This document shows, piece after piece, positions 15,803 to 40,737 of a DNA stretch of 44,269 nucleotides; position 1 is the stretch's first letter, and each line of letters begins with the position of its first letter. The notes beneath the pieces are model-generated. The model did no database searches, was not told the DNA's origin, and saw nothing but the letters and a program-made list of their open reading frames with translations. Position numbers and translations under genes: made by a program. The DNA is from a virus: IMG/VR virus record IMGVR_UViG_3300032204_000007; one strand, written 5' to 3'.

Positions 15803-15969
15803 TCGACTATCCGAATGTGCCGCGCAGCATTGGCGCGGTGCTGTCGAGCAGGCGCGCCAGCCTGATCGAGCTTCAGACTTTCTACGGCCAGGAAGACCTG
15901 CATGACCTGCTCGAAATAATCATCGTCGACAGCCACAACGAGCGCGTCGCGATGGAACGGAGAAAGTGA
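15353..15969 (+). CDS. possible -1 frameshift fusion product of the tail assembly chaperone (G/GT-like)
   Basis: The -1 frame (ORF 15448..15969) is open across the chaperone 3' end and stops exactly at the tape-measure start. I found no canonical XXXYYYZ heptamer. The best candidate is the U-run tcttttat near 15740. An independent GTG start near 15826 is an alternative. Confidence 0.3.
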
Positions 15970-17948
15970 CCGTGGCGACGATCGTAGACGCGCTAGTTGT
16001 TACCCTCGGCCTGGATGCCGCAGCGTTCAAGCGCGGCAAGGCCGAAGCATCGCAGGCAACCAAGAAACTCACCGCAGAAGAGGCCCGCGCGGCCAAAGAG
16101 ATCGAGGAGCGCAACAAGCGCGCCGCCGACTCATTCAAGCGTCTGCGCACCGAGGTGCTGGCGCTCGTCACCATCTTCACCGCTGGCCTGGGCATCAAGG
16201 GCCTGGCCGATTTCACCGCCGACACCATCAAGGGTGCCATCGCCACCGGGCAACTCGCGCGGGAACTGAATATGGTCCCCGGCGAGGTGCGTGCGATCGA
16301 GCAGAGCTTCGATCGGCTGGGCGCATCCGCTGGCGATGCCGACGAGGCGCTCAAGGGTATCCAGGAACAGGCCGCCAAGCTGAAGAGCGGCGAGCTCGAC
16401 AAGCGGTTGGAGTCCTACCTGCTGAATGCCAGTCGCGCCGGCGTCAGCGCAGACGTGAGCGACGCCAACGACCCCATCAAGAAGCTGGAGCGCGACGCAG
16501 AGATCGCACAGAAGCTCGCGCAGACGCAGGGCACTGGCTTTGCCATCCTGGCGATGCAGCAAGAGGGCTACACCCGCGCGATGGCCTATGCGTTGATGCA
16601 GGGCCCGCAGGCGCTGCGCGCAGAGATGGAACGCCAGCAGAAGCTCAACGAACTGTCGGAGCAGGAAACCGACCGGCTTCGCGCGCTGAACAACCGCTGG
16701 AAGGATTTCAAGGAAGGCATCGGCAACACCATGCAGCGCGTGGTGATCGCGATGACGCCAGCGTTTGAGACGATCATGAAGCTGCTCGAACGCCTGTCCG
16801 ATTGGTTCTCCGCTCACTCCGACCAGATCGGCGCGCAGGTGGGCGAGATGGCCGAACAGTTCGCCGCCTGGGTGACCAGCGTCAACTGGACGCAGGTGAT
16901 CGCCGACGTGAAGAGCTTTTTCGAGGAGCTCGATAAGGGCGTGCAGGTGCTGGGCGGCTGGAAGGTCGTGCTGATGGCGCTGCTCGGGTTGAAGATTCTC
17001 TCGATGGTAGCTCCCGTCCTGCAGCTCGCCGGTGCGCTTGGTGGGCTTGGCGCATCGCTCGGTGTGATCGGAACCGTGGGCGGGGCTGCCCTCGCTGTGC
17101 TGGCCGGCCTCGGCATTGCGAAAGCACTTGGCCTGCCAGATACCGAAAAGGCGAAAGGCATCGAAGACATCAAGAAGGGGAAGTGGGGCGCAGCATCCGC
17201 CGACCTGCCGGCGGCCGACTTCCTCGCTGCGCTGGCGGCCAAGGCCACCGGCAAGTCGAACGAGGATGTGGCGGCGTTCCTGACGCTTCCCGACGATCTG
17301 GTAAAGAAGGCCGGACCGACTGCCGTCGACGCGGCGCTCGCTACCCAGCGAAAGTACGGCGTGCCCGCCGCGGTGACACTCGGTCAGTACGGCCTTGAGA
17401 GCAGTTTCGGCAAGCGCATGCCGGCCGGCAGCAACAATCCGTTCGGCATCAAGGAAACCGCGGGCCAGCCCTACGTCGAAGCAGAGACCACCGAGGTCGT
17501 CAACGGCGTCAGCAAGCGCGTGATGCAGCGGTTCGCCAAATATGACTCGCTGGCCGATGCCTTTGACGCGCACGGGAAGCTGCTCGCTACGGGCAGCGCC
17601 TACGCGGAAGCCCGCAAGCATGCCGACGACCCTGCCGCTTATGCCGCTGCGCTGACCGGCAAGTACGCCACCGATCCTCAGTACGGCGCCAAGCTGCAGG
17701 CCATGATGGGTTCGACCGCGCTGCAGCAGGCGAACGCTGCGCAGATCGCGCAGCAGAGCGCGCGTGCGACCGCATCTGCGTTGTCCACTGCTGGTGCACC
17801 TGCGAGCACGCCCACAAGCGAGACGAACATCAACGGGCCGATCAACGTCTACACCCAGGCGACGGATGCCGCCGGCATCGCGCGCGACTTCGCGCCCGCC
17901 GTGCAGCGACAGTCGATGGTGGCCCAAGCCAACACGGGGCTGAGCTGA
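15966..17948 (+). CDS. tape measure protein with a C-terminal glucosaminidase (FlgJ-like) peptidoglycan hydrolase domain
   Basis: GTG start overlapping the upstream TGA. It has a coiled-coil N-terminus and a central TM-like block (LMALLGLKILSMVAPVLQLAGALGGLG...). The C-terminus LGQYGLESSFGKRMPAGSNNPFGIK...YATDPQYGAKL is typical of the glucosaminidase domain. Confidence 0.8.
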   Translation: MTVATIVDALVVTLGLDAAAFKRGKAEASQATKKLTAEEARAAKEIEERNKRAADSFKRLRTEVLALVTIFTAGLGIKGLADFTADTIKGAIATGQLARELNMVPGEVRAIEQSFDRLGASAGDADEALKGIQEQAAKLKSGELDKRLESYLLNASRAGVSADVSDANDPIKKLERDAEIAQKLAQTQGTGFAILAMQQEGYTRAMAYALMQGPQALRAEMERQQKLNELSEQETDRLRALNNRWKDFKEGIGNTMQRVVIAMTPAFETIMKLLERLSDWFSAHSDQIGAQVGEMAEQFAAWVTSVNWTQVIADVKSFFEELDKGVQVLGGWKVVLMALLGLKILSMVAPVLQLAGALGGLGASLGVIGTVGGAALAVLAGLGIAKALGLPDTEKAKGIEDIKKGKWGAASADLPAADFLAALAAKATGKSNEDVAAFLTLPDDLVKKAGPTAVDAALATQRKYGVPAAVTLGQYGLESSFGKRMPAGSNNPFGIKETAGQPYVEAETTEVVNGVSKRVMQRFAKYDSLADAFDAHGKLLATGSAYAEARKHADDPAAYAAALTGKYATDPQYGAKLQAMMGSTALQQANAAQIAQQSARATASALSTAGAPASTPTSETNINGPINVYTQATDAAGIARDFAPAVQRQSMVAQANTGLS

Positions 17949-22783: not shown

Positions 22784-24205
22784 ATGCAGTCGACCCAAAC
22801 ACCGACTCTAATCCCGTTGCCGTTCGCGTCGGCGGGCGGCAAGAACACCATCCCCGAGGCGTCGCAGCTTCCCGGCAATCCGGGGGGCGCCTCGTTCACG
22901 GACGGTTTCCCGCCGGCCACGCGCACGCCTCTCGTAGCCGGTGGCATCCCGCCTGCAGGTCTCGACATGAACGGGATTCTGTACATGATCACCCAGTCGA
23001 CGCGCTGGTCGCATGCTGGTGGTCTGTACGGCTTCAGCTCTTCGTTCGCAGCGGATACGAATGTCGGCGGCTACCCGAATGGCGCCGAGCTCATGAGCGC
23101 GGATCTGCAGGGCACGTGGATCAGCAATACCGACAACAACACTGACAACCCGGATACAGGTCCCGGCACGAAGTGGGTGCCCGGCCGCGCATATGGCGTC
23201 ACGGCTCTCTCTGGTTTGACGAATGCCAATGTGACGCTCACGCCCGCGCAGGCTGCCAAGAACAAGATCACGCTTGCGGGGGCACTCACGGGCAACATCC
23301 AGATCATCGTGCCGGCGTGGATTCGAGAATGGTCGTTCGTGAACAACACGACCGGCAATTTCACGATCACGGTCAAGACCGCCAGCGGTACCGGCGTGGT
23401 TCTCGCCGCGGGGCAACAGAAGATCACCGGAGATGGCACGAACATCTTGCAGCCGGCCGAGAGCGTGGCGACTGCCACGTTACCAACGCATGCGATGCAG
23501 TTTGGGCAGGCGACGGGTCGGCTGCTACGGACGACCGTCTATGCAATCGTCAGTGGCCAGCAGCAAATTTCTGTGAACGGCGGTCCCTTCACGACTACCA
23601 GCGCAACCTCATACTCATCGCTGGCAAATTGTGCATTTGTAGAGGTGGAAGGCATTGGTGGTGGTGGCGCCGGAGGCGGTAACGCTGCAACCAGCTCAAC
23701 AGCAGTTTCTGCAGGATCGGGAGGCGCGTCTGGCTCATGGGCAAAATCTAGGGTTGCAGGCCCGCTTACGTCGGTCGCCGTGACGATCGGCTTGGGCGGT
23801 ACAGGAAACTCTGCTGCGGGAGGTAACTCTGGAGGCGCTACTAGCCTAGGTGCGCTGCTCACCTGTCCAGGCGGCGGCGGCGGCGGAGCTGCCTCCATCA
23901 GCACTTCGGTGCCCGTATCATCTGCAAATCAGGGCGCTCCGGGAGCCATGCCAACCGGGACTGGGCTGCTGTACGCGACGAGCGGGCAGCCGGGGACGAA
24001 TGGCCTAATGTTTGGAACAAGTTCCGCCGCGCTCTCAGGTCAAGGGGCACCCTCCCCGTACGGGGCAGGTGGCCCAAATGGCCTTGGCAGTCCTGGTATC
24101 GGCTATGGCTCCGGAGGCAGCGGCGCAGGTGTTGGACCAAGCCAAGCCGCAAATGCAGGAGGAAAGGGGGGAGATGGGTTTCTCATGATTCGGGAGTACG
24201 CATAA
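22784..24205 (+). CDS. tail fibre protein with a C-terminal glycine-rich domain
   Basis: Internal ATG of ORF 22679..24205 with RBS gaggaa. The conserved N-terminus is IPLPFASAGGKNTIP...GGIPPAGLDMNGILY. The C-terminus carries GGGGAGGG...GGGGGG...GGKGGDGFLMIREYA. Confidence 0.75.
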   Translation: MQSTQTPTLIPLPFASAGGKNTIPEASQLPGNPGGASFTDGFPPATRTPLVAGGIPPAGLDMNGILYMITQSTRWSHAGGLYGFSSSFAADTNVGGYPNGAELMSADLQGTWISNTDNNTDNPDTGPGTKWVPGRAYGVTALSGLTNANVTLTPAQAAKNKITLAGALTGNIQIIVPAWIREWSFVNNTTGNFTITVKTASGTGVVLAAGQQKITGDGTNILQPAESVATATLPTHAMQFGQATGRLLRTTVYAIVSGQQQISVNGGPFTTTSATSYSSLANCAFVEVEGIGGGGAGGGNAATSSTAVSAGSGGASGSWAKSRVAGPLTSVAVTIGLGGTGNSAAGGNSGGATSLGALLTCPGGGGGGAASISTSVPVSSANQGAPGAMPTGTGLLYATSGQPGTNGLMFGTSSAALSGQGAPSPYGAGGPNGLGSPGIGYGSGGSGAGVGPSQAANAGGKGGDGFLMIREYA

Positions 24206-27736: not shown

Positions 27737-28807
27737 TCATCGGGTCGGTTTGATCTTGTCGCCACGTCGATTTCGCACGTAGCGCTCGGTCATCACCACC
27801 GACGAGTGGCCGAGCTGCATTTGTGCCTGGCGGATGTCTCCCGCCGAATCGGTCTTGTCCGTGCCGGCCTTGGCGCGCAGGTCGCGGAACTGGAACGCAT
27901 CCTTCTCAACGCCAGCCGCCAGCCGGGCCTTACGGAACCGCGTGCGCAGCGCCCAGACGCCCAGGCGCTCGCCTGATTCGTTGACAACAAGCGCGGTGCT
28001 CACGACCTTGTAACCCTTCTTTCTGGCACGGATGCGCGCGATCACTGCGGCCAGCTCGCCCACCACGGCAATCCGCAGCTTCTTCTTCGTCTTGCCCTGC
28101 TGGATCTCCAGTTCGTTGCTCCCGTTGATGTGGCGTTCGTCGAAGCGCAGCGTATCTGCCGGACGCTGGCCGGTGAGATAGGCCAGGTCCATCGCGTCAC
28201 GCATCGGCTGATCGGCTTCCTTGTACACGGCAGCGAACACATCATCTTCGACGTACACGTCGCGGCCTTCTTCCTCGTTGCGCTTCACGCCGGCACATGG
28301 GTTCGCTGCGCGCGTGAGGCCGGAGTCGCGCGAGTAGTTGAAGATGTGCGAGAACAGTGCCACCTCACGATTGGCGCGCACGTGGCCGGCATCCTGCGGC
28401 GCGGTGCGTCCTTTCTCCGCATACCATTTGCGCGCCTTCTCGGCGCGCCAGCGGAAATAGGCGCGAATGTGCGTTGGCTCGATCTCATCGAGAGGTGCGC
28501 CCTTGAAGAACTCGCGGAGGTTGTCGAGTTCCTTCACGTTGTCGCTGCGCGTGCGTGGCGATTTGGTGGGCAGCACGTCGGCCACATAGCCGTTGGCTGC
28601 CGTGTCGAACGTGACGATGGGCGCCGGCATCGTCTTGGATTTCTCAAGCTCCGACCACTTGCGCACGGCCTCGACGTAATCGGTGCCCAGCGAGAGTTCC
28701 TTCCGCGGCTTGCCGCCCAGATCGTAGAAATAGTAGGTTTTCGCGCCGCGATGGCGAGCGCGCATGCCGGCAGGCAAGTTGGTGTTGCGCGTCGGTTTCC
28801 TGCCCAT
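27737..28807 (-). CDS. int: tyrosine integrase
   Basis: The N-terminus LPAGMRARHRGAKTYYFYDLGGKPRKE is typical of phage integrases. The C-terminus carries FRDLRAKAGTD...LGHSSVVMTERYV (R..H..R..Y catalytic signature). Confidence 0.92.
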   Translation of the reverse strand: MGRKPTRNTNLPAGMRARHRGAKTYYFYDLGGKPRKELSLGTDYVEAVRKWSELEKSKTMPAPIVTFDTAANGYVADVLPTKSPRTRSDNVKELDNLREFFKGAPLDEIEPTHIRAYFRWRAEKARKWYAEKGRTAPQDAGHVRANREVALFSHIFNYSRDSGLTRAANPCAGVKRNEEEGRDVYVEDDVFAAVYKEADQPMRDAMDLAYLTGQRPADTLRFDERHINGSNELEIQQGKTKKKLRIAVVGELAAVIARIRARKKGYKVVSTALVVNESGERLGVWALRTRFRKARLAAGVEKDAFQFRDLRAKAGTDKTDSAGDIRQAQMQLGHSSVVMTERYVRNRRGDKIKPTR

Positions 28808-28811
28808 GATG

Positions 28812-29060
28812 TCAGCCTACGAGCGAAAGGGCGGGGGGCTGCCATTTCTTCTTCGGTTCGGCAGCGGCAACCTCGGCGGCACGGCGCCCTTCGATCGCGG
28901 CGCGCGCGACGATCGGGCGCCCGCGCGCATTCTCCCAGAACGGGATGCCAGAGGCGCGCAGCCATTCGATCTGCAGTTGCTCGCGCGTGCGCTTGTTCCG
29001 ACCGGTCTTCACGCCGGTCAGCTCTTCGATTTCCTGAGGGGAGAGGAAGGTGTCGCTCAT
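28812..29060 (-). CDS. excisionase-like protein (DUF4224)
   Basis: Internal ATG of ORF 28812..29288. The sequence FLSPQEIEELTGVKTGRNKRTREQLQIEWLRASGIPF matches DUF4224. It lies adjacent to int. Confidence 0.65.
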   Translation of the reverse strand: MSDTFLSPQEIEELTGVKTGRNKRTREQLQIEWLRASGIPFWENARGRPIVARAAIEGRRAAEVAAAEPKKKWQPPALSLVG

Positions 29061-29190: not shown

Positions 29191-30087
29191 TCATGGGATT
29201 GTTGCCGTTGGGAATCCATCGTGTTGCGCGCCGTCGAGCAGTCGGCCAGCGGCCTTCTTGCCAACCCGCACGGATGAGTCCGTGGCATTCAGTTCAATCG
29301 GCTTATGGTCGTAGGCGCCATCCTGGTGAGCGCCCAGCCATTCGCCCCACTGCTTGAACAGAAAAGGCACATCGCCTGCTTTGCACTGATCGCGCAGGCC
29401 GCGAGCCCAGTCTGGATGCATCGGGCGTGCGCCGGGCCCACTCTCTCCACCAACAATGATCCAGTCCAGCCAGCCCGGCTCGTATTCGTTGCCGCTTACG
29501 TGCAGTAGTTCACCGGTGATGGTGGAGAACACATCCACCGGTCCGAGTAGAGGCTCCATGCTCAGGAATCGCACGCGCGCCGGCACGGCCAGCAGCTTCG
29601 GAATGTCGCGGTCGGCTTCTTTCTGGTTGCAGATCGTGGCGCCGAGCCACACACGACCGTCCCCGATGAGGTCGAATGCCAGGCCGTCGCGCTGCGTGTA
29701 TGAATGCACGTTGCCAATTCGCTTGGTCAGCATCAACCAGTCAAGGTGCGGCGTGTCCGCGATCAACTTGAACAGGTCCATTCGCCATGCGTCCGGCACC
29801 GCGTTGTCGAATACGTCGGCCAAGCTGGCACAGAACACGCGCTGGCGCCGACCATGCTCGGCGAAGAAGTGATCATGGTTGGCGTTCCAGGCGAGTGGCT
29901 TGCGCCAGTTCGCCACGCTGGTGCGCCGGCGCGGAGCGCCCGGCCCCCAGTTGATGGCTGTGCCGCCAGCGAAGCGTGCGTTGCGCGTCTCGGCATAGCA
30001 GTGGTCGCAGCCGGGGCCAACCTTCTGGCAGCCTTCCCACGGGTTGAAGGTGTGATCGGTCCATTCGATCTTGCTGTTCTCGCTCAC
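29191..30087 (-). CDS. phage Gp37/Gp68 family protein (DUF5131)
   Basis: GTG start with RBS aggaggc. The sequences SKIEWTDHTFNPWEGCQKVGPGCDHCYAE and ...WIIVGGESGPGARPMHPDWARGLRDQC...FLFKQWGEW are hallmark DUF5131 blocks. Confidence 0.85.
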   Translation of the reverse strand: MSENSKIEWTDHTFNPWEGCQKVGPGCDHCYAETRNARFAGGTAINWGPGAPRRRTSVANWRKPLAWNANHDHFFAEHGRRQRVFCASLADVFDNAVPDAWRMDLFKLIADTPHLDWLMLTKRIGNVHSYTQRDGLAFDLIGDGRVWLGATICNQKEADRDIPKLLAVPARVRFLSMEPLLGPVDVFSTITGELLHVSGNEYEPGWLDWIIVGGESGPGARPMHPDWARGLRDQCKAGDVPFLFKQWGEWLGAHQDGAYDHKPIELNATDSSVRVGKKAAGRLLDGAQHDGFPTATIP

Positions 30088-30350
30088 GATGCCTCCTTTG
30101 CACGTTTCCGCTTGATAACGGCGACCAAGCCGGCCCGATCGATCTCGACTGCGCCGTGGGCGACAGCCTGCGCGCGCTTTGCCTTGCAGATGTCGTAATG
30201 GCTGTGCGGCGTGCCAGGCTTCTGGTGCCATCGGCGTGCAACACCGATCCGGTCTGCCATCGCATGCAGCTCGTCGTCGGTGTCGGCCACCATGTGGAAC
30301 ATCACCATGCGGCCGAACGGCGCGGCCATGTCATCGACGTAGACGGCCAT
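30084..30350 (-). CDS. DUF4031 domain protein
   Basis: The sequence MAVYVDDMAAPFGRMVMFHMVADTDDELHAMADRIGVARRWHQ...HYDI fits DUF4031 as I recall it. Its stop overlaps the DUF5131 start (GTGA). Its start is 1 nt after the RT stop. Confidence 0.7.
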   Translation of the reverse strand: MAVYVDDMAAPFGRMVMFHMVADTDDELHAMADRIGVARRWHQKPGTPHSHYDICKAKRAQAVAHGAVEIDRAGLVAVIKRKRAKEAS

Positions 30351-30351
30351 G

Positions 30352-31569
30352 TCAGGATTCCTTTGCGGACGAGGCCGCGCGATATGCTTTGGTGAATTGC
30401 TTGTTGATCGCGTGTCCGCGCTTGCGCGCTACGTTCGCAACGCGCGCCCGGTCGGCATGGCTGCCAGTAGCCTGCCGCAGCAGTCCGAAATAGCTGTTGG
30501 CGGCGGCAAAGACCTCCTCGGCGGGCATCTCGCGCAAGCGCTGGATGCCGACGTTGAGCGTTCGCTTGCGGGTGTGGCGCACCCATGGCCGGATGACCTG
30601 GCCCACGAAGTCGATGCCGCGAGAGACCGGCTGCAGGATGGTCTTTTTCGGATTCAGGCGAGCACCCAGACGGGTCGGCAGGAACACCGCGATGGCGTCG
30701 TGTGCCTCGTTGAGCCACTGGGGAGATTCGTGCAGTAGCACGAAATCATCGACGTACCTGATGTAGTGCCGGCAGCGCAGCTCATGCTTGACGAACTGGT
30801 CGAGCTCATTCAGATAGACGTTCGCGAAGAACTGCGACGACAGGTTTCCGATGGGCAGCCCGAGATGCGCGGGCTGTTCCATGAGCCGCTTGTGCGGCGG
30901 CACGCGATCTATCATCCCCGGATCACCAAGGTAGACGAAGTCTTCCCGTGGATCGTGCATCAGCACGAGCTCGGTCAACCCGCGCCAGAACGGCTCGGGG
31001 ATCTTCGAGAGCAGCAGGTCGAGCAAAACGCGCTTGTCGATGCTGACGAAGAAGTTGGCCAGATCGCACTTCAGGTAGTGCGCCGGCTTCGACCAGTTCT
31101 GCGTGATCGAGCGTACCTTTGCGTCGAGGCGCTGGGCGGCGTACAGCGTCCCGCGGCCTTTGATACATGCGCACGAGTCGGCGATGAATGAGCGTTCGAA
31201 GCGCGGTCCGATTCGGTTGTACAACAGGTGGTGCACGATACGGTCGCGGAATTCCGCCGCCCATACCTCGCGGTGCTTCGGTCTGTCGATGACGAAGCAC
31301 TTCGAGCGCCCAGGGACATAGCTGTCGTCGAGCAGCTTGGCGTTCAGGTGAACGAGGTTGCGCTCCAGGTTGGCCTCGAAGGCGAGAGCGCTGGCCGTGT
31401 TGCGTTTCGTGCGCCGGCAGTCGCGGTAAGCCTTGACTAGCTCGGCGCCCGTGAAGCCTTCCGATTCTTTCCAATCTGCGGACAGCGACCGCGCGGAGCG
31501 CGGCGCTCTTGCGGTTGTTGTTCTGGTTGCCGTTGTTGAAGTTCTGGTACCAGGCGTAAGCGGAACCAT
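30352..31569 (-). CDS. DGR-type reverse transcriptase (5' boundary uncertain)
   Basis: RT motifs are present: REVWAAEFRDRIVHH, YLKCDLANFF, the DGR-diagnostic LPIGNLSSQFFANVYLNELD, and YIRYVDDFVLL. The conserved core begins near 31450. The ORF stays open to 31752, and the first in-frame ATG upstream of the core is at 31569, so the TR would lie inside the 5' end. Confidence 0.88.
   Translation of the reverse strand: MVPLTPGTRTSTTATRTTTARAPRSARSLSADWKESEGFTGAELVKAYRDCRRTKRNTASALAFEANLERNLVHLNAKLLDDSYVPGRSKCFVIDRPKHREVWAAEFRDRIVHHLLYNRIGPRFERSFIADSCACIKGRGTLYAAQRLDAKVRSITQNWSKPAHYLKCDLANFFVSIDKRVLLDLLLSKIPEPFWRGLTELVLMHDPREDFVYLGDPGMIDRVPPHKRLMEQPAHLGLPIGNLSSQFFANVYLNELDQFVKHELRCRHYIRYVDDFVLLHESPQWLNEAHDAIAVFLPTRLGARLNPKKTILQPVSRGIDFVGQVIRPWVRHTRKRTLNVGIQRLREMPAEEVFAAANSYFGLLRQATGSHADRARVANVARKRGHAINKQFTKAYRAASSAKES
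31473..31564 (-). repeat. DGR template repeat (TR)
   Basis: The 92-nt segment matches 32117-32208 and 32657-32747. In the sense strand (target frame) it reads SAYAWYQNFNNGNQNNNRKSAALRAVAVRR, with seven AAC codons. It lies between avd and the RT core. Confidence 0.9.
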
Positions 31570-31705: not shown

Positions 31706-32083
31706 TCAGTCATGGCGGCCTTGACCTCCATGAAGCGGGCGCTTGGCTGCATACTTCTTCCACGCCGTGGCCTGTTTGCTGATGCTCTCTGTCAACTGCG
31801 TGACGCCCCAATACTGCTTGGGGGAGATCTTCTGCATATCCAACGAGAGACGCAGCAGCAGCTCAACGAGCTTCACCTTTTCGACCATGAGAGAAAGATG
31901 CGGCACCTTGTCATCGGCAACGTTCGCTCGATAGACCAGGATCAGCAACTTCGAAGACTCGCGCACGATCTCTTCGCCGATCAGGTGCTTGAACGCGCGT
32001 TCCATGTTGGCGACGATCTTCGTCACCTTGCCGAACAGGTCGTAGCCTGTCTTATAGACATCGAGCTCAGTGTGGAGAGCCAT
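31706..32083 (-). CDS. avd: accessory variability determinant (Avd-like four-helix bundle protein)
   Basis: 125 aa, helical, with a basic C-terminus (WKKYAAKRP). It resembles the 23S rRNA-IVS/four-helix-bundle family and sits in the canonical position between the target gene and the TR. Confidence 0.75.
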   Translation of the reverse strand: MALHTELDVYKTGYDLFGKVTKIVANMERAFKHLIGEEIVRESSKLLILVYRANVADDKVPHLSLMVEKVKLVELLLRLSLDMQKISPKQYWGVTQLTESISKQATAWKKYAAKRPLHGGQGRHD

Positions 32084-32097
32084 GGCGTATCAAATGA

Positions 32098-32586
32098 TCA
32101 AATTACGGAAGGAATGAATCTGCGGACAGCGACCGCGCGGAGCGCGGCGCTCTTGCGGTAGTCGTCCTGGCCGCCGTCGAGGAAGTCCTGGCCCCAGGCG
32201 GAAGCGGAGTTCGTCTCGTAGTCCTCTTCCAGCCAATGCGCAACCTTGGCGAATTCGTCGCCCAAGTTCGCCATCAGAAGGCGCCCCTCGCGGCGATTGG
32301 GCAACTTGCCACCACGGCCGGCGGCATACGCTAGGGCATTGGAGTGGCTGAGATCGCCACCATCACCTGGCAGCTTGATCAGGTAATAGTCGAGCGTGCC
32401 CTCTTCCTTGTAGATCGGGCCGGCGAGGCGTTCGCCAGGCGCCAACGGGATCGTGACAGCATCCACGCGGTATTCCGTGGCACGCGGCTGTTCCTTGAAC
32501 TGTTTGATCAGCTCGCCGATGCGCGCGTGATCTGCCTCAATCCGTGCATGCTCGGCTTCGATGTGTTCCAAGGTGACTGCGGTCAT
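32098..32586 (-). CDS. DGR target protein 1 (DUF1566/C-type lectin-like C-terminus; no signal peptide)
   Basis: RBS aggagc. The C-terminus ...SASAWGQDFLDGGQDDYRKSAALRAVAVRRFIPSVI is encoded by VR1. The segment NALAYAAGRGGKLPNRREGRLLMANL is DUF1566-like. Confidence 0.85.
   Translation of the reverse strand: MTAVTLEHIEAEHARIEADHARIGELIKQFKEQPRATEYRVDAVTIPLAPGERLAGPIYKEEGTLDYYLIKLPGDGGDLSHSNALAYAAGRGGKLPNRREGRLLMANLGDEFAKVAHWLEEDYETNSASAWGQDFLDGGQDDYRKSAALRAVAVRRFIPSVI
32117..32208 (-). repeat. DGR variable repeat 1 (VR1)
   Basis: Manual alignment to the TR gives 12 mismatches in 92 nt. Eleven fall at TR adenines (T on the plus strand). The 42 nt at the 3' (sense) end are identical to the TR. 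Confidence 0.9.
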
Positions 32587-32646
32587 TTGATGCTCCTGCA
32601 GAGATGAAAGGGATGGGTGGTTCAGCTCAGTGAATGAGGGAATGGG

Positions 32647-33006
32647 TCAATTTTTGAATCTGCGGACAGCGACCGCGCGGCGCGCGGCGCTCTTGCGGCC
32701 GTAGCGCTGGTTGCCGTCGCCGAAGTACTGGTACCAGGCGCAAGCGGTGTCCCACTCAACATCCTCATCAGTCCAGTACAGATCAGGCTTCACGAGGTCG
32801 CGTTGCTCGTTGTAGATGAAGATGGCTTCGACGCGGTTCATCAGCACGCCGCCGACGCTCTTGGCCCATTCGCGCTGCTTCTCGCGCGGGAGTTCCTCGT
32901 CATTGACGGCGACGATCACGGTGTGCTCGATCTCGCCGTTCTTATCGATGCGGCCATAGAGATAGGTTTCGCCTTCAGCAAGCGGCGGAATTTGGATCTG
33001 TTGCAT
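32647..33006 (-). CDS. DGR target protein 2 (DUF1566/C-type lectin-like C-terminus; no signal peptide)
   Basis: RBS aggagt. The C-terminus ...TACAWYQYFGDGNQRYGRKSAARRAVAVRRFKN is encoded by VR2. The segment WAKSVGGVLMNRVEAIFIY is DUF1566-like. Confidence 0.85.
   Translation of the reverse strand: MQQIQIPPLAEGETYLYGRIDKNGEIEHTVIVAVNDEELPREKQREWAKSVGGVLMNRVEAIFIYNEQRDLVKPDLYWTDEDVEWDTACAWYQYFGDGNQRYGRKSAARRAVAVRRFKN
32657..32747 (-). repeat. DGR variable repeat 2 (VR2)
   Basis: Manual alignment to the TR gives 10 mismatches at TR adenines in the variable part, plus one T-to-G (sense) change in the GC-rich 3' block. Confidence 0.9.
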
Positions 33007-33031: not shown

Positions 33032-33421
33032 TCATTGAATCCAGGTGGCCTCAGCGGCCCGATGCGGACGCCAGTTGCGCGCCCATTTCGCGTGGGCCTT
33101 ATCGATGTCGTCTTTCATCTCGGCTTCAATCGGATCGGCTCGCAGCACTTCCAGCTCGGGCTGCTCGGGCCCGTATCGCCAGACGTCGACGAACGCACGC
33201 TTGGTTCCCTTCGGACGCCCTCGGTGCGCCTCATCACGCGCGCGCAGCGCGTGCAGGTGGATCAGGCACGTGGTGCGCGTGAAGCCGGTCCACTCGGCCA
33301 GCTCGGCAGTGGTGCAGCCACGTTCTCCGGCAGCCAGGAGGGCGACGATGATCTTTTGCGAGTTGCGCTCGCCGCGCCGCTTGCCGCCGTTGACGATGTT
33401 TTGCAAGTTCAGGTGAGCCAT
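33032..33421 (-). CDS. winged-helix DNA-binding protein
   Basis: The segment IIVALLAAGERGCTTAELAEWTGFTRTTCLIHLHALRA is wHTH-like. Confidence 0.5.
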   Translation of the reverse strand: MAHLNLQNIVNGGKRRGERNSQKIIVALLAAGERGCTTAELAEWTGFTRTTCLIHLHALRARDEAHRGRPKGTKRAFVDVWRYGPEQPELEVLRADPIEAEMKDDIDKAHAKWARNWRPHRAAEATWIQ

Positions 33422-34358: not shown

Positions 34359-34588
34359 ACGGGTTCCCCAGGACGTTGCACGGAATGGGGGCGCCCGATG
34401 ACGTTCAAACGACCGCCCGTGGTCATGCAACCGGCGGCCTGCCATATGGGGGCATCGAGATTGCCGACGTTCTCCCATGTCCACCCACGACAAGCGCCAA
34501 ACTCATCCCGGAGCCCAAATGCACCGGTGCCGCCCGTGAGGCAATGGGTAGGTCTTGTGCTGACAAGACGCTTGACCTGAGTAGTCAT
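34355..34588 (-). CDS. hypothetical small Cys-containing protein
   Basis: Listed ORF with ATGA coupling at both ends. Confidence 0.4.
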   Translation of the reverse strand: MTTQVKRLVSTRPTHCLTGGTGAFGLRDEFGACRGWTWENVGNLDAPIWQAAGCMTTGGRLNVIGRPHSVQRPGEPV

Positions 34589-35391
34589 GCGGCCCTCGCA
34601 GCGATCACTGGATCCTCGAACACGCGCACGCCTTCCAGCGGGCAGTTCTTCTTGAGCGCCAGCGCGATCTTGTTGATCGCCGGCATGTTGGCGTCGAGCA
34701 GATCGACGTACTCAGGGTGCTCGGCCACGTAGCGGATCAGCGCGAGCTTGTCGCTGACCTCAGCTTTCCAGACCATGCGCGTTGAGACGCCCTTCGTCTG
34801 CGGGATCGAGGCGATCACCGGCGCGGTGATGAGCGTGGCCGTCTGCTGCAGCGTGGCGGCCTCGGCAGCGCCTTGCTCGACGCGGCTTTCGGCTTCGGAG
34901 TTCAGGCGTGCGGCGGCTTCAACGTCGCCGGCGGCGGCGGCCTGCTCGGCCTTGCGCTGGATCTCCTGGGCTTCCGCCTGCGCGGCGGCTTCGGCAGCGG
35001 CGGCCTGGGCTTCCATCTCCGCACGTTCCCGGCGTGCAGCCTCTTCGGCCTTTGCCTGCTCCTCGATGCGCTTGCGCTCCTGTTCGCGGTCGTAGCCCTG
35101 GATTGCGTTCTTGAGCAGCACCTCGGCCTGCTCCAGATAGGTGGTCGGCGCCCGGAACAGATCCATCACCGCTTTCTTCGCTGCGTCGATCGGCTGCGTG
35201 ATGCTCTTGCGCTTCGTGTCCACGTCCTTCTGCAGGCCCTTGATCTTCGTGAGCTCGCGCGCAGCCAGATCGCGCACCTGTGGGCTGTCGATCGTGTACG
35301 CCTTGGCCATCTCCAGCGCGGACGTGGCCTGTTTGAACAGCGCCTGTTCAGGCTGCGGCACTTGCAGGTTCACCAGCGGTTTCGTATCCAT
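34585..35391 (-). CDS. coiled-coil protein of the recombination module (architecture resembles DUF1351)
   Basis: 268 aa with a central A/E/Q/R-rich coiled coil, downstream of the exonuclease and RecT genes. Confidence 0.5.
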   Translation of the reverse strand: MDTKPLVNLQVPQPEQALFKQATSALEMAKAYTIDSPQVRDLAARELTKIKGLQKDVDTKRKSITQPIDAAKKAVMDLFRAPTTYLEQAEVLLKNAIQGYDREQERKRIEEQAKAEEAARRERAEMEAQAAAAEAAAQAEAQEIQRKAEQAAAAGDVEAAARLNSEAESRVEQGAAEAATLQQTATLITAPVIASIPQTKGVSTRMVWKAEVSDKLALIRYVAEHPEYVDLLDANMPAINKIALALKKNCPLEGVRVFEDPVIAARAA

Positions 35392-35968
35392 GTTTTTCCT
35401 TCCAGTTGCGGGTGGTCAGCAGCGACAGGAATACCGGCCAGTCGCTCTTATCGGTGTAGGGTTGGAGGCGGTAGGTGCCGTCGGCGCGCAGGCCCAAGGC
35501 ATACCGGTCTTCGATGTGCGTGCCGGCCTTCTCGAACAATTCCTTGTAGGCGGCGAGCTGCAGCCCGATCACCGGCCCGAGCGTCAGCATCTTCTTGAGG
35601 TCAATGACGGCGCGGCGGCGGCTGATGAGGCCAGAGCGGTCCGGCGTGCCGGCGTAGCGCAGGCCGGGGTGGTAGAGCCGCTTTTCGATCGTCTCTGGCA
35701 CGAAGCCGGTCTCAGCGCGGAACTTGATCCACGCCGTGAGGTACGGCCGCAGCTCGTCGGCGAGGTCGTCCATGTCCAGGTCGTCGAGGTCGTACAGCTC
35801 CGTCATGCGGTGTACGGCCTGGCCGAGCTTCTGCGCGCGCTCCAGCACGGCGCGCGGCACCTGGGAGTAGTCGACCAGCGGCGCGAGGATCTGCGTCACG
35901 CTGGGCACGCGCTGCGCGCCCACCGTGTACACGTGCCCGACAGGATCGAATCGCAGCTCAGCCATCAC
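35348..35968 (-). CDS. PD-(D/E)XK family exonuclease
   Basis: The motif GTPDRSGLISRRRAVIDLKK fits D...(D/E)xK. ATGA coupling to recT. The 3' end overlaps the next gene by 44 nt. Confidence 0.65.
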   Translation of the reverse strand: MMAELRFDPVGHVYTVGAQRVPSVTQILAPLVDYSQVPRAVLERAQKLGQAVHRMTELYDLDDLDMDDLADELRPYLTAWIKFRAETGFVPETIEKRLYHPGLRYAGTPDRSGLISRRRAVIDLKKMLTLGPVIGLQLAAYKELFEKAGTHIEDRYALGLRADGTYRLQPYTDKSDWPVFLSLLTTRNWKEKHGYETAGEPASAAA

Positions 35969-36999
35969 GCACCCATCGGGTCTTCGGTCCAGGCCACTAC
36001 GTCATTGTAGTTGGCCGTGGTCACGCCGTCGTAGCCGAAGCCGAAGCGGTTGCGCAGATCAGCCTCGCCGAGCGCTGCCTGCTCCATCTTCGTTTTCAGG
36101 ATGCGGATGACGCTGTCGCTGACAGCAGTGCCGGTCACCTGCTCGAAGTCGTCGTCGGAGCCGGGTTCACGGCTGGCCGGCGCAGGCGCGGGCGTAGGGG
36201 CACGGCGCGGCGTACGCGCGGCAGCCGGCGCAGGCGTCGGTACGGCTTGTGCTTCGCCAGCCTGCGGCAGTTCCTGCTGCAGCGTGTTGGGGTCCGAGTT
36301 CTCGATCGCCACAGAAGTGCGTGCGCTCTTGGATTGCGGCTGTGGCACTTCAACGGCTGCCGGCGCGCGGCTGCCGCCTTCTTCGACGCCGCCGAAGGTG
36401 ACGGTGCCATCCGGGCGCACATCGATGATGTCGTGCAGTTCTTCTTGCGTCGGCAGACCCATCGAGATTTCAGGCGCGGCCGTGTTGATCATCCAGCCGG
36501 CGCTGCGATACATCAGCATGAGCTGCGGGATGGTCTTCCACTTCGAACCGGTCTTGTTGTACCAGCCCTCATCCTTGGCCATCTTGATCGTCACGTCGGG
36601 GCCGACGATCCGCTCGCCGCTGCTGAGCTCGATGGACGATGCGCGGCAGCCCCAAGAATCGGTGTTCGGCTCGCCGAAGAACTCGTACTTGACGGCGGTG
36701 AAGCGTCCGCAGTGGTTGAAGGTGGCGATCAGGAACTTTGCCGACCAACCAGGGCGGCCGTGCACCACATACAGATTCTGCATCACCATCAGCTCGTCGG
36801 CGTGCAACCGGCTCGCGAGGTTCAGCGCGATCATGCAGTTGGAGATGTTTCCCTGGTACTGCTGCGGCACCAGCGACGACGTGGAGAACGCCTTCGCGAC
36901 GCGCTGGAGCAGCTCGAATCCCTCAAGGTCAAAGAAGCCGGCGCGCACGGGCATATGAGCCGAAGCGCTGACGGGTGCCGGAAGAGTGGTCGTGGTCAT
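35965..36999 (-). CDS. recT: RecT-family single-strand annealing recombinase
   Basis: The RecT core is LVPQQYQGNISNCMIALNLASRLHADELMVMQNLYVVHGRPGWSAKFLIA...WYNKTGSKWKTIPQLMLMYRSAGW. Confidence 0.85.
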   Translation of the reverse strand: MTTTTLPAPVSASAHMPVRAGFFDLEGFELLQRVAKAFSTSSLVPQQYQGNISNCMIALNLASRLHADELMVMQNLYVVHGRPGWSAKFLIATFNHCGRFTAVKYEFFGEPNTDSWGCRASSIELSSGERIVGPDVTIKMAKDEGWYNKTGSKWKTIPQLMLMYRSAGWMINTAAPEISMGLPTQEELHDIIDVRPDGTVTFGGVEEGGSRAPAAVEVPQPQSKSARTSVAIENSDPNTLQQELPQAGEAQAVPTPAPAAARTPRRAPTPAPAPASREPGSDDDFEQVTGTAVSDSVIRILKTKMEQAALGEADLRNRFGFGYDGVTTANYNDVVAWTEDPMGA

Positions 37000-39863: not shown

Positions 39864-40643
39864 CTATTCAGCGACCCATTTCCCTATTACCACGCCGACG
39901 ATTCGCGATCCTTCCGGCATTGGAAACATCCGATCATGCCAATTTGGATTCAGCGCTTTGAGCATGACTGATCCATCCTCATCCATGAGGAGCTGCTTGA
40001 ATGTGGCGCGATTCTCATGGTCCAAGCGCACGACGACCATGCTCCTATTGATGGCCTCTCTGGCAGGGTCGACAGCAATTAAGTCACCAGGGGCGTATGA
40101 CTTGGGGCCGGTCGGGTCGTACATGCTCTCTCCCGACACTCGAAGATAGAAGGCATTCGGCCCGTGGTTACGCGGGCATGGAATCCAATCCTCTGCATCG
40201 CCGGGGGCGAAATTATCGATTACTTCTTCCCAATTGCCGGCTTGCACCCATGAAATAAGCGGAAGCATGCCCGGCCGGATACTCGCGATATTTTCGAATG
40301 AGGGGATTGATTTAACCAACTCAGGCTGTTCGATCAGAACATACTTTTGCAGAACTTCCCGAACGCGCTTTGGTTTGTCTTTGTCCGGACGATCGAGCGC
40401 GTGTGAGACATCCGCCGACGCAATTTCGAACTTTGTGCCGCGTAGTAGCTCGATGACTTCGACGCCCAACGCGTCAGCGATTGGCTTCAACTTGGGGAGG
40501 CGTGGCTCGGTGAGCTCGGCCTCCCATTTCTGCACGGCTTGTGGCGTGACGCCCAATACTCGCGCGAGATCCGACTGCGAGAAGTTCGTCTTTTCTTCGC
40601 GGATCTTCTTGATGCGCGCACCGAGGTGATCGTAAGTGTCCAT
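39864..40643 (-). CDS. cI: CI-like repressor (XRE HTH plus S24 LexA-type autopeptidase domain)
   Basis: The HTH is FSQSDLARVLGVTPQAVQKWE. The C-terminal S24 domain carries GESM (Ser) and TFKQL (Lys). ATG 40643 is preferred over the TTG at 40682. Confidence 0.88.
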   Translation of the reverse strand: MDTYDHLGARIKKIREEKTNFSQSDLARVLGVTPQAVQKWEAELTEPRLPKLKPIADALGVEVIELLRGTKFEIASADVSHALDRPDKDKPKRVREVLQKYVLIEQPELVKSIPSFENIASIRPGMLPLISWVQAGNWEEVIDNFAPGDAEDWIPCPRNHGPNAFYLRVSGESMYDPTGPKSYAPGDLIAVDPAREAINRSMVVVRLDHENRATFKQLLMDEDGSVMLKALNPNWHDRMFPMPEGSRIVGVVIGKWVAE

Positions 40644-40651
40644 GCCCAATG

Positions 40652-40737
40652 CTACAAAGCTGGGTTGTAGCCCGCACTGCAAATATGAGTTGTAAATTGG
40701 CGTGCAAAGTTGTAGATTCCGGTTGTAGAGCTACAAC
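40652..40737. promoter_or_regulatory. right operator region between cI and cro
   Basis: CTACAA-N7-TTGTAG lies at 40652-40670. GTTGTAA is at 40689 and GTTGTAG at 40709. A near-perfect palindrome GTTGTAG-AG-CTACAAC lies at 40722-40737. Confidence 0.6.

Follow-up and report, generated by a model that had tools for sequence, protein, structure and literature searches.

The 44,269-nt virus record IMGVR_UViG_3300032204_000007 of IMG/VR (the window, meaning the whole stretch of DNA that was analysed) is a complete temperate myophage genome containing a canonical and currently active diversity-generating retroelement (DGR), in which a single template repeat (TR) serves two variable repeats (VRs) located in two small tandem genes, with the tail fibre of the phage not being acted on. 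A DGR-type reverse transcriptase (RT), along with the accessory variability determinant (Avd), copies the TR RNA with adenine-specific errors, and the resulting cDNA takes the place of the 3' 91 nt of the two paralogous genes, randomising nine codons in each. In the reading favoured here, the target proteins would be produced as part of the leftward early/lysogeny arm of the genome and would act as soluble hypervariable binders inside the cell carrying the phage genome instead of as tail parts, with host defence proteins or proteins of competitor phages as candidate ligands. There is very little doubt concerning the DGR itself and the fold of its targets; an intracellular site of action is favoured over virion-associated adhesins, at a probability of roughly 0.5. 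An original prediction for this locus had already described a DGR acting on two small minus-strand open reading frames (ORFs) of 162 and 119 aa, and both the ORFs and the repeats bear this out (Table 1).

The DGR is recognised through a 91-nt repeat present in three in-register copies, of which the copy adjoining the RT gene was taken as the TR, the other two being VR1 in target 1 and VR2 in target 2. The 34-nt GC-rich constant 3' part of the repeat occurs three times in the 44-kb window and in none of 100 shuffles. Neither this part nor any other TR-like sequence was found in the tail fibre gene by a window-wide search, as had been claimed. When compared to the TR, VR1 has 12 mismatches, 11 of which are at TR adenines (Fisher p = 1.3e-6), and VR2 has 11, with 10 at TR adenines (Fisher p = 2.5e-5), two flanking bases being included in both cases. 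The TR codons at the nine varying positions comprise seven AAC and two TAC codons, which is the classical DGR design, giving a theoretical repertoire of ~15^7 x 4^2, roughly 3e9 variants, per protein. A survey of 80 IMG/VR loci, in which VRs were counted for the 74 loci where Avd was found, revealed the same bias family-wide, with 98.3% of 1,782 TR/VR mismatches in 156 VRs located at TR adenines. Two structural residues, Q133 and Q140, do not vary even though their TR codons include adenines, which implies purifying selection. The single VR2 change at another base, T>G at 32681, replaces Leu by Arg and falls within the loop (3 nt) of a hairpin with a 9-bp stem that is found in the GC-rich 3' constant part of VR1, VR2 and TR alike; the fold z-scores of the VR 3' hairpin are only -0.4 to -1.4, no better than shuffles. 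A distinct pair of initiation of mutagenic homing sites (IMH/IMH*) was not identified, VR1 being equal to TR across the whole GC-rich 3' part and diverging only after ...CAGATT.

Table 1. Features of the DGR cassette and of its genomic surroundings, in coordinates of the window.
Feature	Coordinates	Strand	Remarks
Target 2	32647..33006	-	119-aa ORF, free-standing Lcl_C/DUF1566 (C-type-lectin-like) domain; strong AGGAG ribosome-binding site, read from the sequence
Target 1	32098..32586	-	162-aa ORF, N-terminal heptad helix (residues 6-32) followed by Lcl_C/C-type-lectin-like domain; AGGAG ribosome-binding site
VR2	32657..32747	-	3' end of target 2; variable residues 89, 92, 94, 96, 97, 99, 101, 102, 103
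VR1	32117..32207	-	3' end of target 1; variable residues 129, 132, 134, 136, 137, 139, 141, 142, 143
Avd	31706..32083	-	125-aa ORF, four-helix bundle protein; Pfam bAvd and NCBIfam DivGenRetAVD
TR	31473..31563	-	91 nt between the bAvd gene and the RT gene; reading in the VR frame SAYAWYQNFNNGNQNNNRKSAALRAVAVRR
DGR-type RT	30352..31569	-	putative start at 31569; Pfam RVT_1, PADLOC RT, motifs
129-aa protein	33032..33421	-	directly upstream of target 2
Exonuclease-associated 268-aa protein	34585-35391	-	PHROGs
Exonuclease	35348-35968	-	PHROGs
RecT-like annealase	35965-36999	-	PHROGs
S24 (cI-like) repressor	39864-40682	-	co-oriented with the cassette; a Cro-like gene diverges from it
DUF4031	30084-30350	-	downstream of RT
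DUF5131/gp37-gp68	29191-30087	-	downstream of RT
DUF4224 xis-like	28812-29060	-	downstream context
Tyrosine integrase	27737-28807	-	downstream context
Tail fibre	22784..24205	+	PHROG tail fiber, E = 3e-79; not a DGR target

Evidence of DGR activity comes from natural variation between assemblies. An independent 44,310-bp assembly (L003) shows 15 differences from the window over 20,489 aligned bp, all of which lie within VR1 (32159-32201) and 14 of which are at TR adenine positions, with VR2, TR and the remaining aligned sequence being identical. Three VR1 alleles have been detected on target 1 proteins that are otherwise identical, and target 2 is essentially invariant within the window's phage lineage. 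On the basis of this variation, mutagenic retrohoming is demonstrably active, being both ongoing and recent at VR1. VR2 may be a less active or even inactive substrate, considering its T>G substitution and the lack of change where VR1 switched. The exact target 2 sequence is present on 360 public contigs. The phage of the window also recurs in ~300 public assemblies, where it is mostly seen as a circularly permuted contig of ~44.3 kb. Such a recurrence points to a phage or prophage that is sequenced very often, possibly one of contaminant-type Ralstonia.

The remaining components of the cassette follow the minus-strand order target 2, target 1, Avd, a non-coding-looking TR and RT. The RT matches Pfam RVT_1 (E = 4.5e-14) and the PADLOC RT profile (E = 9e-36), and its translation contains IGNLSSQ and YVDD, corresponding to the [I/L]GxxxSQ and YxDD motifs of the DGR clade. 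It is 72-74% identical at the amino acid level to the RTs of annotated DGRs from phages Magia and vB_Sb_QDWS (hereafter QDWS), the class being assigned by motifs and identity. Avd is matched by Pfam bAvd (E = 1.1e-8, 36 bits against a cut-off of 40) and NCBIfam DivGenRetAVD (E = 4.8e-10, 39.7 bits against a cut-off of 80), and its gene has the canonical DGR position although both scores are below the curated cut-offs. Between the avd stop codon (31706-31708) and the RT domain the sole in-frame ATG is at 31569, 6 nt upstream of the TR, and no canonical start codon was found between the TR and the conserved RT domain. With a start at 31569, the RT ORF would contain the TR within its 5' end, in a frame other than the VR frame. 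The Magia RT is likewise annotated as long (427 aa).

The two targets had been thought to share only their variable C-terminus. This proved to be wrong, as they are paralogues over ~112 aa (target 1 residues 47-157 and target 2 residues 8-117, 41% identity, E = 2e-10), with target 1 having an extra helical N-terminal extension of ~45 aa. The structure of target 1 was modelled with AlphaFold2 (AF2) from a 114-sequence multiple sequence alignment, with the single-sequence prediction being unusable (predicted local distance difference test, pLDDT, of 36.6). The resulting model has a pLDDT of 81 and contains the compact alpha/beta, C-type-lectin-like (CLec-like) core, a fold for which a structural check had been suggested. 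A coiled coil had also been proposed for one N-terminus, and a confident helix was indeed observed at residues 6-32 of target 1 (block-mean pLDDT 85-97), with the heptad pattern L6/I9/I16/I23/I27/F30. This four-heptad helix probably oligomerises the protein, in a layout similar to the 'neck plus CRD' (carbohydrate-recognition domain) of collectins. Nearly all of the 50 PDB matches listed by Foldseek for the model are C-type-lectin or related Link-module folds, including poxvirus A33R, the Lcl C-terminal domain 8q4e (prob 0.89, TM-score 0.40/0.48, E = 0.12), Bd2740, collectin neck-plus-CRD trimers and intimin, and the best phage match in BFVD, ranked second overall, is a phage "DUF1566 domain-containing protein" (prob 1.0, E = 0.015). 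A literature search on 'HbP1', the depositor's name for 8q4e, gave only a human transcription factor. Profile searches point, though weakly, to the same superfamily. Pfam Lcl_C (PF07603) matches target 2 at E = 0.0017, its 19 bits falling short of the gathering score (34.9), and does not match target 1; of the 114 family members, 85 are matched at E <= 1e-3, the best reaching 3.6e-7, and the family profile matches 8q4e at E = 0.0015. Neither target has a family match in PHROGs (tail families included), PADLOC or NCBIfam, nor any effector domain or any Pfam, PADLOC or NCBIfam domain beyond the weak Lcl_C match. The targets can be described as minimal free-standing CLec-like (Lcl_C/DUF1566) domains, the 119-aa one being bare. 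The homologues P0001 (277 aa) and P0003 (283 aa) had the appearance of a long target fused to a short one, which would have pointed to a heterocomplex, but they were rejected as artefacts or pseudogenes, the first VR being frameshifted ('...QVVRRPGARCPQI...') and read through into the next ORF; the frameshifts in these metagenomic copies might have arisen from DGR-induced indels, or else from misassembly of a polymorphic VR. A SNF2-helicase fusion (P0224) is a single case, probably of read-through from a truncated gene, and was not used.

Regarding cellular location, no signal-peptide- or transmembrane-like segment was detected in either target with a Kyte-Doolittle hydropathy heuristic, in agreement with the original prediction; the maximum 19-residue means are 0.59 and 0.76 for the two targets, and the N-termini are acidic or neutral. 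A signal-, transmembrane- or lipobox-like N-terminus occurs in 0 of 120 close homologues and in ~1-2 of 150 family representatives, with the longer N-termini of some relatives being further coiled-coil-like, Pfam-less extensions and not export signals. The targets are also small, acidic and soluble-looking, with 0 or 1 cysteine. Such properties, together with the typically glycan- or surface-binding nature of the Lcl_C/DUF1566 superfamily (PMC5758913; 8q4e), are consistent with extracellular soluble lectins which would leave the cell upon lysis and attach to surface glycans of the host or to debris, for instance masking receptors against the loss of progeny on dead cells or blocking competitors. 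This role is nonetheless quite improbable, as a diffusible product would constitute a public good, where a rare beneficial VR variant does not favour its own genome, and DGR maintenance over at least 425 loci would be hard to explain. It can be argued from first principles that DGR selection needs genotype and phenotype to stay linked, and that a protein diffusing outside the cell would sever this link. The early-arm position of the genes also has no obvious tie to lysis timing.

The target family is widely distributed. A profile search retrieved >3,253 target-family proteins, with 3,246 clusters at 50% identity (1,166 at E <= 1e-10), and the cassette has been confirmed in 425 IMG/VR stretches. 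The nearest genome match is Ralstonia holmesii, with 83% aa identity for target 1, and other matching genomes belong to Paraburkholderia, Pandoraea, Caballeronia, Azonexus, Dechloromonas and Rhodoferax. A target homologue of non-DGR type, with no RT or TR nearby, has been observed in EBPR siphovirus 1 (L006, 1235-3618), where the 137-aa gp4 (38% identity) adjoins a pentapeptide-repeat protein and a DHH/DHHA1 phosphoesterase, outside the tail module. Among the 80 surveyed loci, the order short target, long target, Avd and RT is invariant (80/80), 36 of them have a same-strand integrase 3-9 kb downstream, and RecT, exonuclease, AAA-ATPase and regulator genes are found upstream of the cassette where detectable. 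Two VRs are present in 37 of the 74 loci with counts, three in 24 and four in 1, with the third and fourth paralogue copies located on the same strand upstream of the cassette; L008, L028 and L076 are apparent exceptions, having a match just after the long target. This distribution bears on the proposal that the cassette is selfish or decaying, the two ORFs that the DGR keeps changing being of no adaptive use to the phage. The targets lack any PHROG, PADLOC or NCBIfam family, and VR2 is the same in independent assemblies with a T>G in its constant region, as would be expected of such a cassette. However, both target ORFs are intact and have strong ribosome-binding sites, the invariance of Q133/Q140 implies selection, the gene order is conserved with repeated duplication to 3-4 copies across hundreds of loci, and the family comprises thousands of clusters, making a functionless element very improbable.

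Isolated phages carrying the cassette comprise the Burkholderia phages Magia, vB_E192a (E192a) and vB_PL1, and the 'Shewanella' phage QDWS. The records of 'Shewanella phage vB_Sb_QDWS' (OK094664; L001/L109) and 'Hujiaoplasma phage zrk29-1' (OP650936) are both 47,902 bp long and give identical matches, with 76% nucleotide identity to the RT of the window's GC-rich phage; they are probably one phage, and their host labels look doubtful. In Magia, E192a and QDWS, the three for which it was checked, the cassette has the same position as in the window, between the recombination/early genes and xis-int. The Magia DGR is composed of gp47 (short target), gp46 (long target), gp45 (Avd) and gp44 (RT), in the same order as in the window, but includes a third, remote target (gp57), whereas the window has two tandem targets; QDWS has the same TR-to-VR1 spacing as the window (644 nt). 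When the window is compared to QDWS and Magia, amino acid identity is 48% for Avd, 56-60% for target 1 and 43-44% for target 2, and RecT is 74% identical to that of QDWS and 58% identical to that of Magia. The window shares its exonuclease (82%) and its 268-aa protein (84%) with QDWS but not with Magia. Downstream of RT the gene content varies between carriers: the window has DUF4031 and DUF5131, Magia has HNH and other genes, and both QDWS and E192a have DNA methylases. The virion modules also differ: no QDWS homologue was found at E < 1e-5 for the window's virion genes, tail fibre and baseplate included, and the few Magia matches are weak (25-42%). Tail type was discarded as a discriminator, both Magia and QDWS being of the contractile/baseplate type (sheath annotated in Magia, baseplate J in both), and the gene-level virion comparison was used instead.

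These comparisons are relevant to the classical role, in which the targets would be accessory adhesins in the virion, for example with a target 1 trimer on the trimeric tail fibre or baseplate, possibly along with target 2, and where variation would alter adsorption or host range in the manner of BPP-1 Mtd. This is the sole experimentally proven role of a phage DGR (general knowledge; PMC8144416, PMC10743442), and a host-range role has been suggested by the Magia authors (PMC7883833). The strong ribosome-binding sites on both target genes are compatible with it, as is the helix-plus-CLec arrangement of target 1, which weakly resembles the trimeric collectin neck-plus-CRD (TM-scores of 0.27-0.33, not significant). 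Nevertheless, the target genes are ~8 kb from the tail fibre gene and on the opposite strand, being located in the early/recombination arm in every locus examined, and no PHROG tail family matches their products. Furthermore, no counterpart of the window's tail fibre and baseplate was detected in QDWS, and any in Magia is weak, whereas the targets of these cassettes, N-termini included, are 42-60% identical to those of the window. Target 2, as a bare domain, has nothing to anchor it. An adhesin role is on the whole unlikely, although it is the most serious of the alternatives.

Soluble binders acting inside the cell are more in line with several of the same observations. The presence of the cassette and RecT in phages with unrelated virion genes provides indirect support for a non-tail role. 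The conservation of the target N-termini across QDWS and Magia argues against a phage-specific tail adaptor, and the 119 aa of target 2 leave no room for an anchoring domain. Additional support comes from the position and orientation of the genes, which match an early-left arm, and from the duplicated copies, which apart from the three apparent exceptions are co-oriented and upstream in the same arm. More broadly, we tentatively propose, at clearly less than even odds, that the DGR of a large family of temperate betaproteobacterial phages serves to diversify free-standing cytoplasmic lectin-fold binders and not the tail, constituting an 'antibody-like' repertoire of the early/lysogeny arm which may neutralise variable host defence proteins or recognise competing phages, and in which the bare and coiled-coil paralogues may form an oligomeric binder set.

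A number of points weigh against an intracellular role. To our knowledge, the experimentally characterised phage DGR targets are all receptor-binding tail proteins. For a phage of a Gram-negative host the missing signal peptide does not discriminate between the two sites, since virion proteins assemble in the cytoplasm and lack one too, as is the case for BPP-1 Mtd. The 80 loci are from related phages, so their synteny is not independent evidence. With regard to structure, Foldseek returned no match at E <= 1e-3 for the target 1 model in either PDB or BFVD, and the VR segment of the model is of low confidence (pLDDT <50 at residues 124-128 and 132-145). Considering that the targets have no effector domain, a binder of this kind could only block or sequester its ligand. 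A promoter and terminator scan of 27.4-42 kb gave counts at or below shuffle expectation and was uninformative on transcription units; taken with a terminator annotated just upstream of Magia's short target, this means that the cassette could have its own, possibly late, promoter. The DUF1566/Lcl_C superfamily is also mostly extracellular or surface-bound, as seen in LdtA, Lcl and the Fib_succ lipoproteins (PMC5758913). No virion proteome data on the carrier phages turned up in the searches that touched on them, none of which was aimed at proteomes.

In the best known phage DGR, that of BPP-1 (Mtd/Avd/TR/Brt), the target Mtd is a trimeric tail-fibre tip protein of ~380 aa encoded next to the tail genes. 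The window's DGR has in common with it the Avd, an IGxxxSQ-type RT, adenine-specific transfer from TR to VR, a CLec-fold target with the VR at its C-terminal end and a TR dominated by AAC codons. It differs in having two targets (119 and 162 aa) of the Lcl_C and not the Mtd class, encoded among early-arm genes. The multidomain build, N-terminal tail-attachment region and tail-module gene of a Mtd-type target are absent from the window's targets, which have no domain beyond the helix and the CLec core and whose genes are on the strand opposite the tail genes. The Legionella pneumophila LdtA and the Lcl C-terminal domain (PF07603; 8q4e) belong to the same domain superfamily as the targets, as judged by weak profile matches, and the VR of LdtA is likewise at the extreme C-terminus. 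LdtA is, however, an exported outer-membrane lipoprotein (PMC5758913), in contrast to the window's targets and their close homologues, in which export signals are missing. A precedent for cytoplasmic CLec-type variable domains in signalling or conflict is offered by intracellular DGR targets of cells, namely cyanobacterial regulators (PMC7517822) and the STAND-NTPase 'antigen sensors' of multicellular bacteria (PMC10907252). These cellular sensors are large multidomain proteins with NTPase, kinase or effector modules, whereas the variable CLec domains of the window are phage-encoded, stand alone as binding domains and are fused to no NTPase, kinase or effector.

The anatomy of the cassette is not new. 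One TR serving two tandem VRs had been considered noteworthy in the original prediction, and the arrangement is confirmed by the repeats, but its novelty is not, given that DGRs with multiple VRs were reported by DiGReF in 2012 for Ralstonia pickettii 12J, B. thailandensis, B. glumae, R. solanacearum CMR15 and Collimonas, the targets being paralogues that are diversified independently (PMC3521204). As in the window, one TR serves paralogous targets (2-4), in the same bacterial genera. Short targets composed of DUF1566 only are likewise known, accounting for about half of the 'category d' DUF1566 targets described by Wu et al. in 2018 (PMC5758913). Magia's cassette was announced in 2021 as having DGR targets in "relatively short reading frames", with speculation on adaptation or host range, and its gp47 and gp57 are labelled in GenBank as 'lectin fold domain protein, potential DGR target', gp46 not being flagged (PMC7883833). 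The window's cassette is thus part of a catalogued but functionally unstudied DGR family. The DiGReF and Wu surveys are silent on the early-operon placement, the missing export signals and the independence from virion modules. Roux et al. (2021) reported tail proteins as the viral targets of some DGR clades, leaving others "unknown" (PMC8144416), and a literature search of limited coverage found no paper dealing with where such small targets act or with the location of their genes in the early arm.

If the targets are early cytoplasmic binders, this would constitute a new role for targeted hypermutation in phages, concerning intracellular conflict instead of adsorption, and the 119-aa protein would be a natural scaffold with ~3e9 variants for the evolution of intracellular binders. 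Should they prove to be virion adhesins, the system would be an ordinary multi-target DGR. The question is directly testable owing to the isolated carriers, Magia (on B. cenocepacia), QDWS, E192a and vB_PL1.

The genomic setting of the cassette agrees with the position and orientation given for it originally, between the recombination genes and int in a leftward early operon. The plus strand of the window encodes the terminase, portal, protease, major head protein, sheath, tube, tape measure, baseplate, tail fibre, methyltransferase and lysis genes. The minus-strand run comprises the integrase, DUF4224 xis-like, DUF5131, DUF4031, RT, TR, Avd, target 1, target 2, the 129-aa protein and small ORFs, continuing with the exonuclease genes, RecT, more ORFs and the S24 repressor. 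The cassette is thereby flanked by the RecT/exonuclease genes (34585-36999) and the DUF4224 xis-like/integrase genes (27737-29060) of the leftward early/lysogeny arm.

Additional aspects of these neighbouring genes have been observed. The 129-aa protein has no Pfam, PHROG or NCBIfam match. tblastn searches with it or with Magia gp48 ('transcriptional regulator') gave matches just upstream of the cassette in ~22 of the 80 related loci, and the two proteins do not match each other at E<1e-5. For the DUF5131 gene, located two genes downstream of RT, PADLOC gives two candidate defence components, PDC-M30B and PDC-M41B, as matches (E ~1e-51). The DGR cassette is located a few kb downstream of the module of RecT-type annealase and exonuclease, in what would be the same operon, and is co-inherited with it across phages with unrelated virion genes. 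In view of this co-inheritance, it is conceivable that phage single-strand annealing proteins help cDNA integration, by analogy with retron recombineering. Finally, the tape-measure protein (15966-17948, plus strand) contains a C-terminal lysozyme/endolysin-like domain at residues ~442-611.

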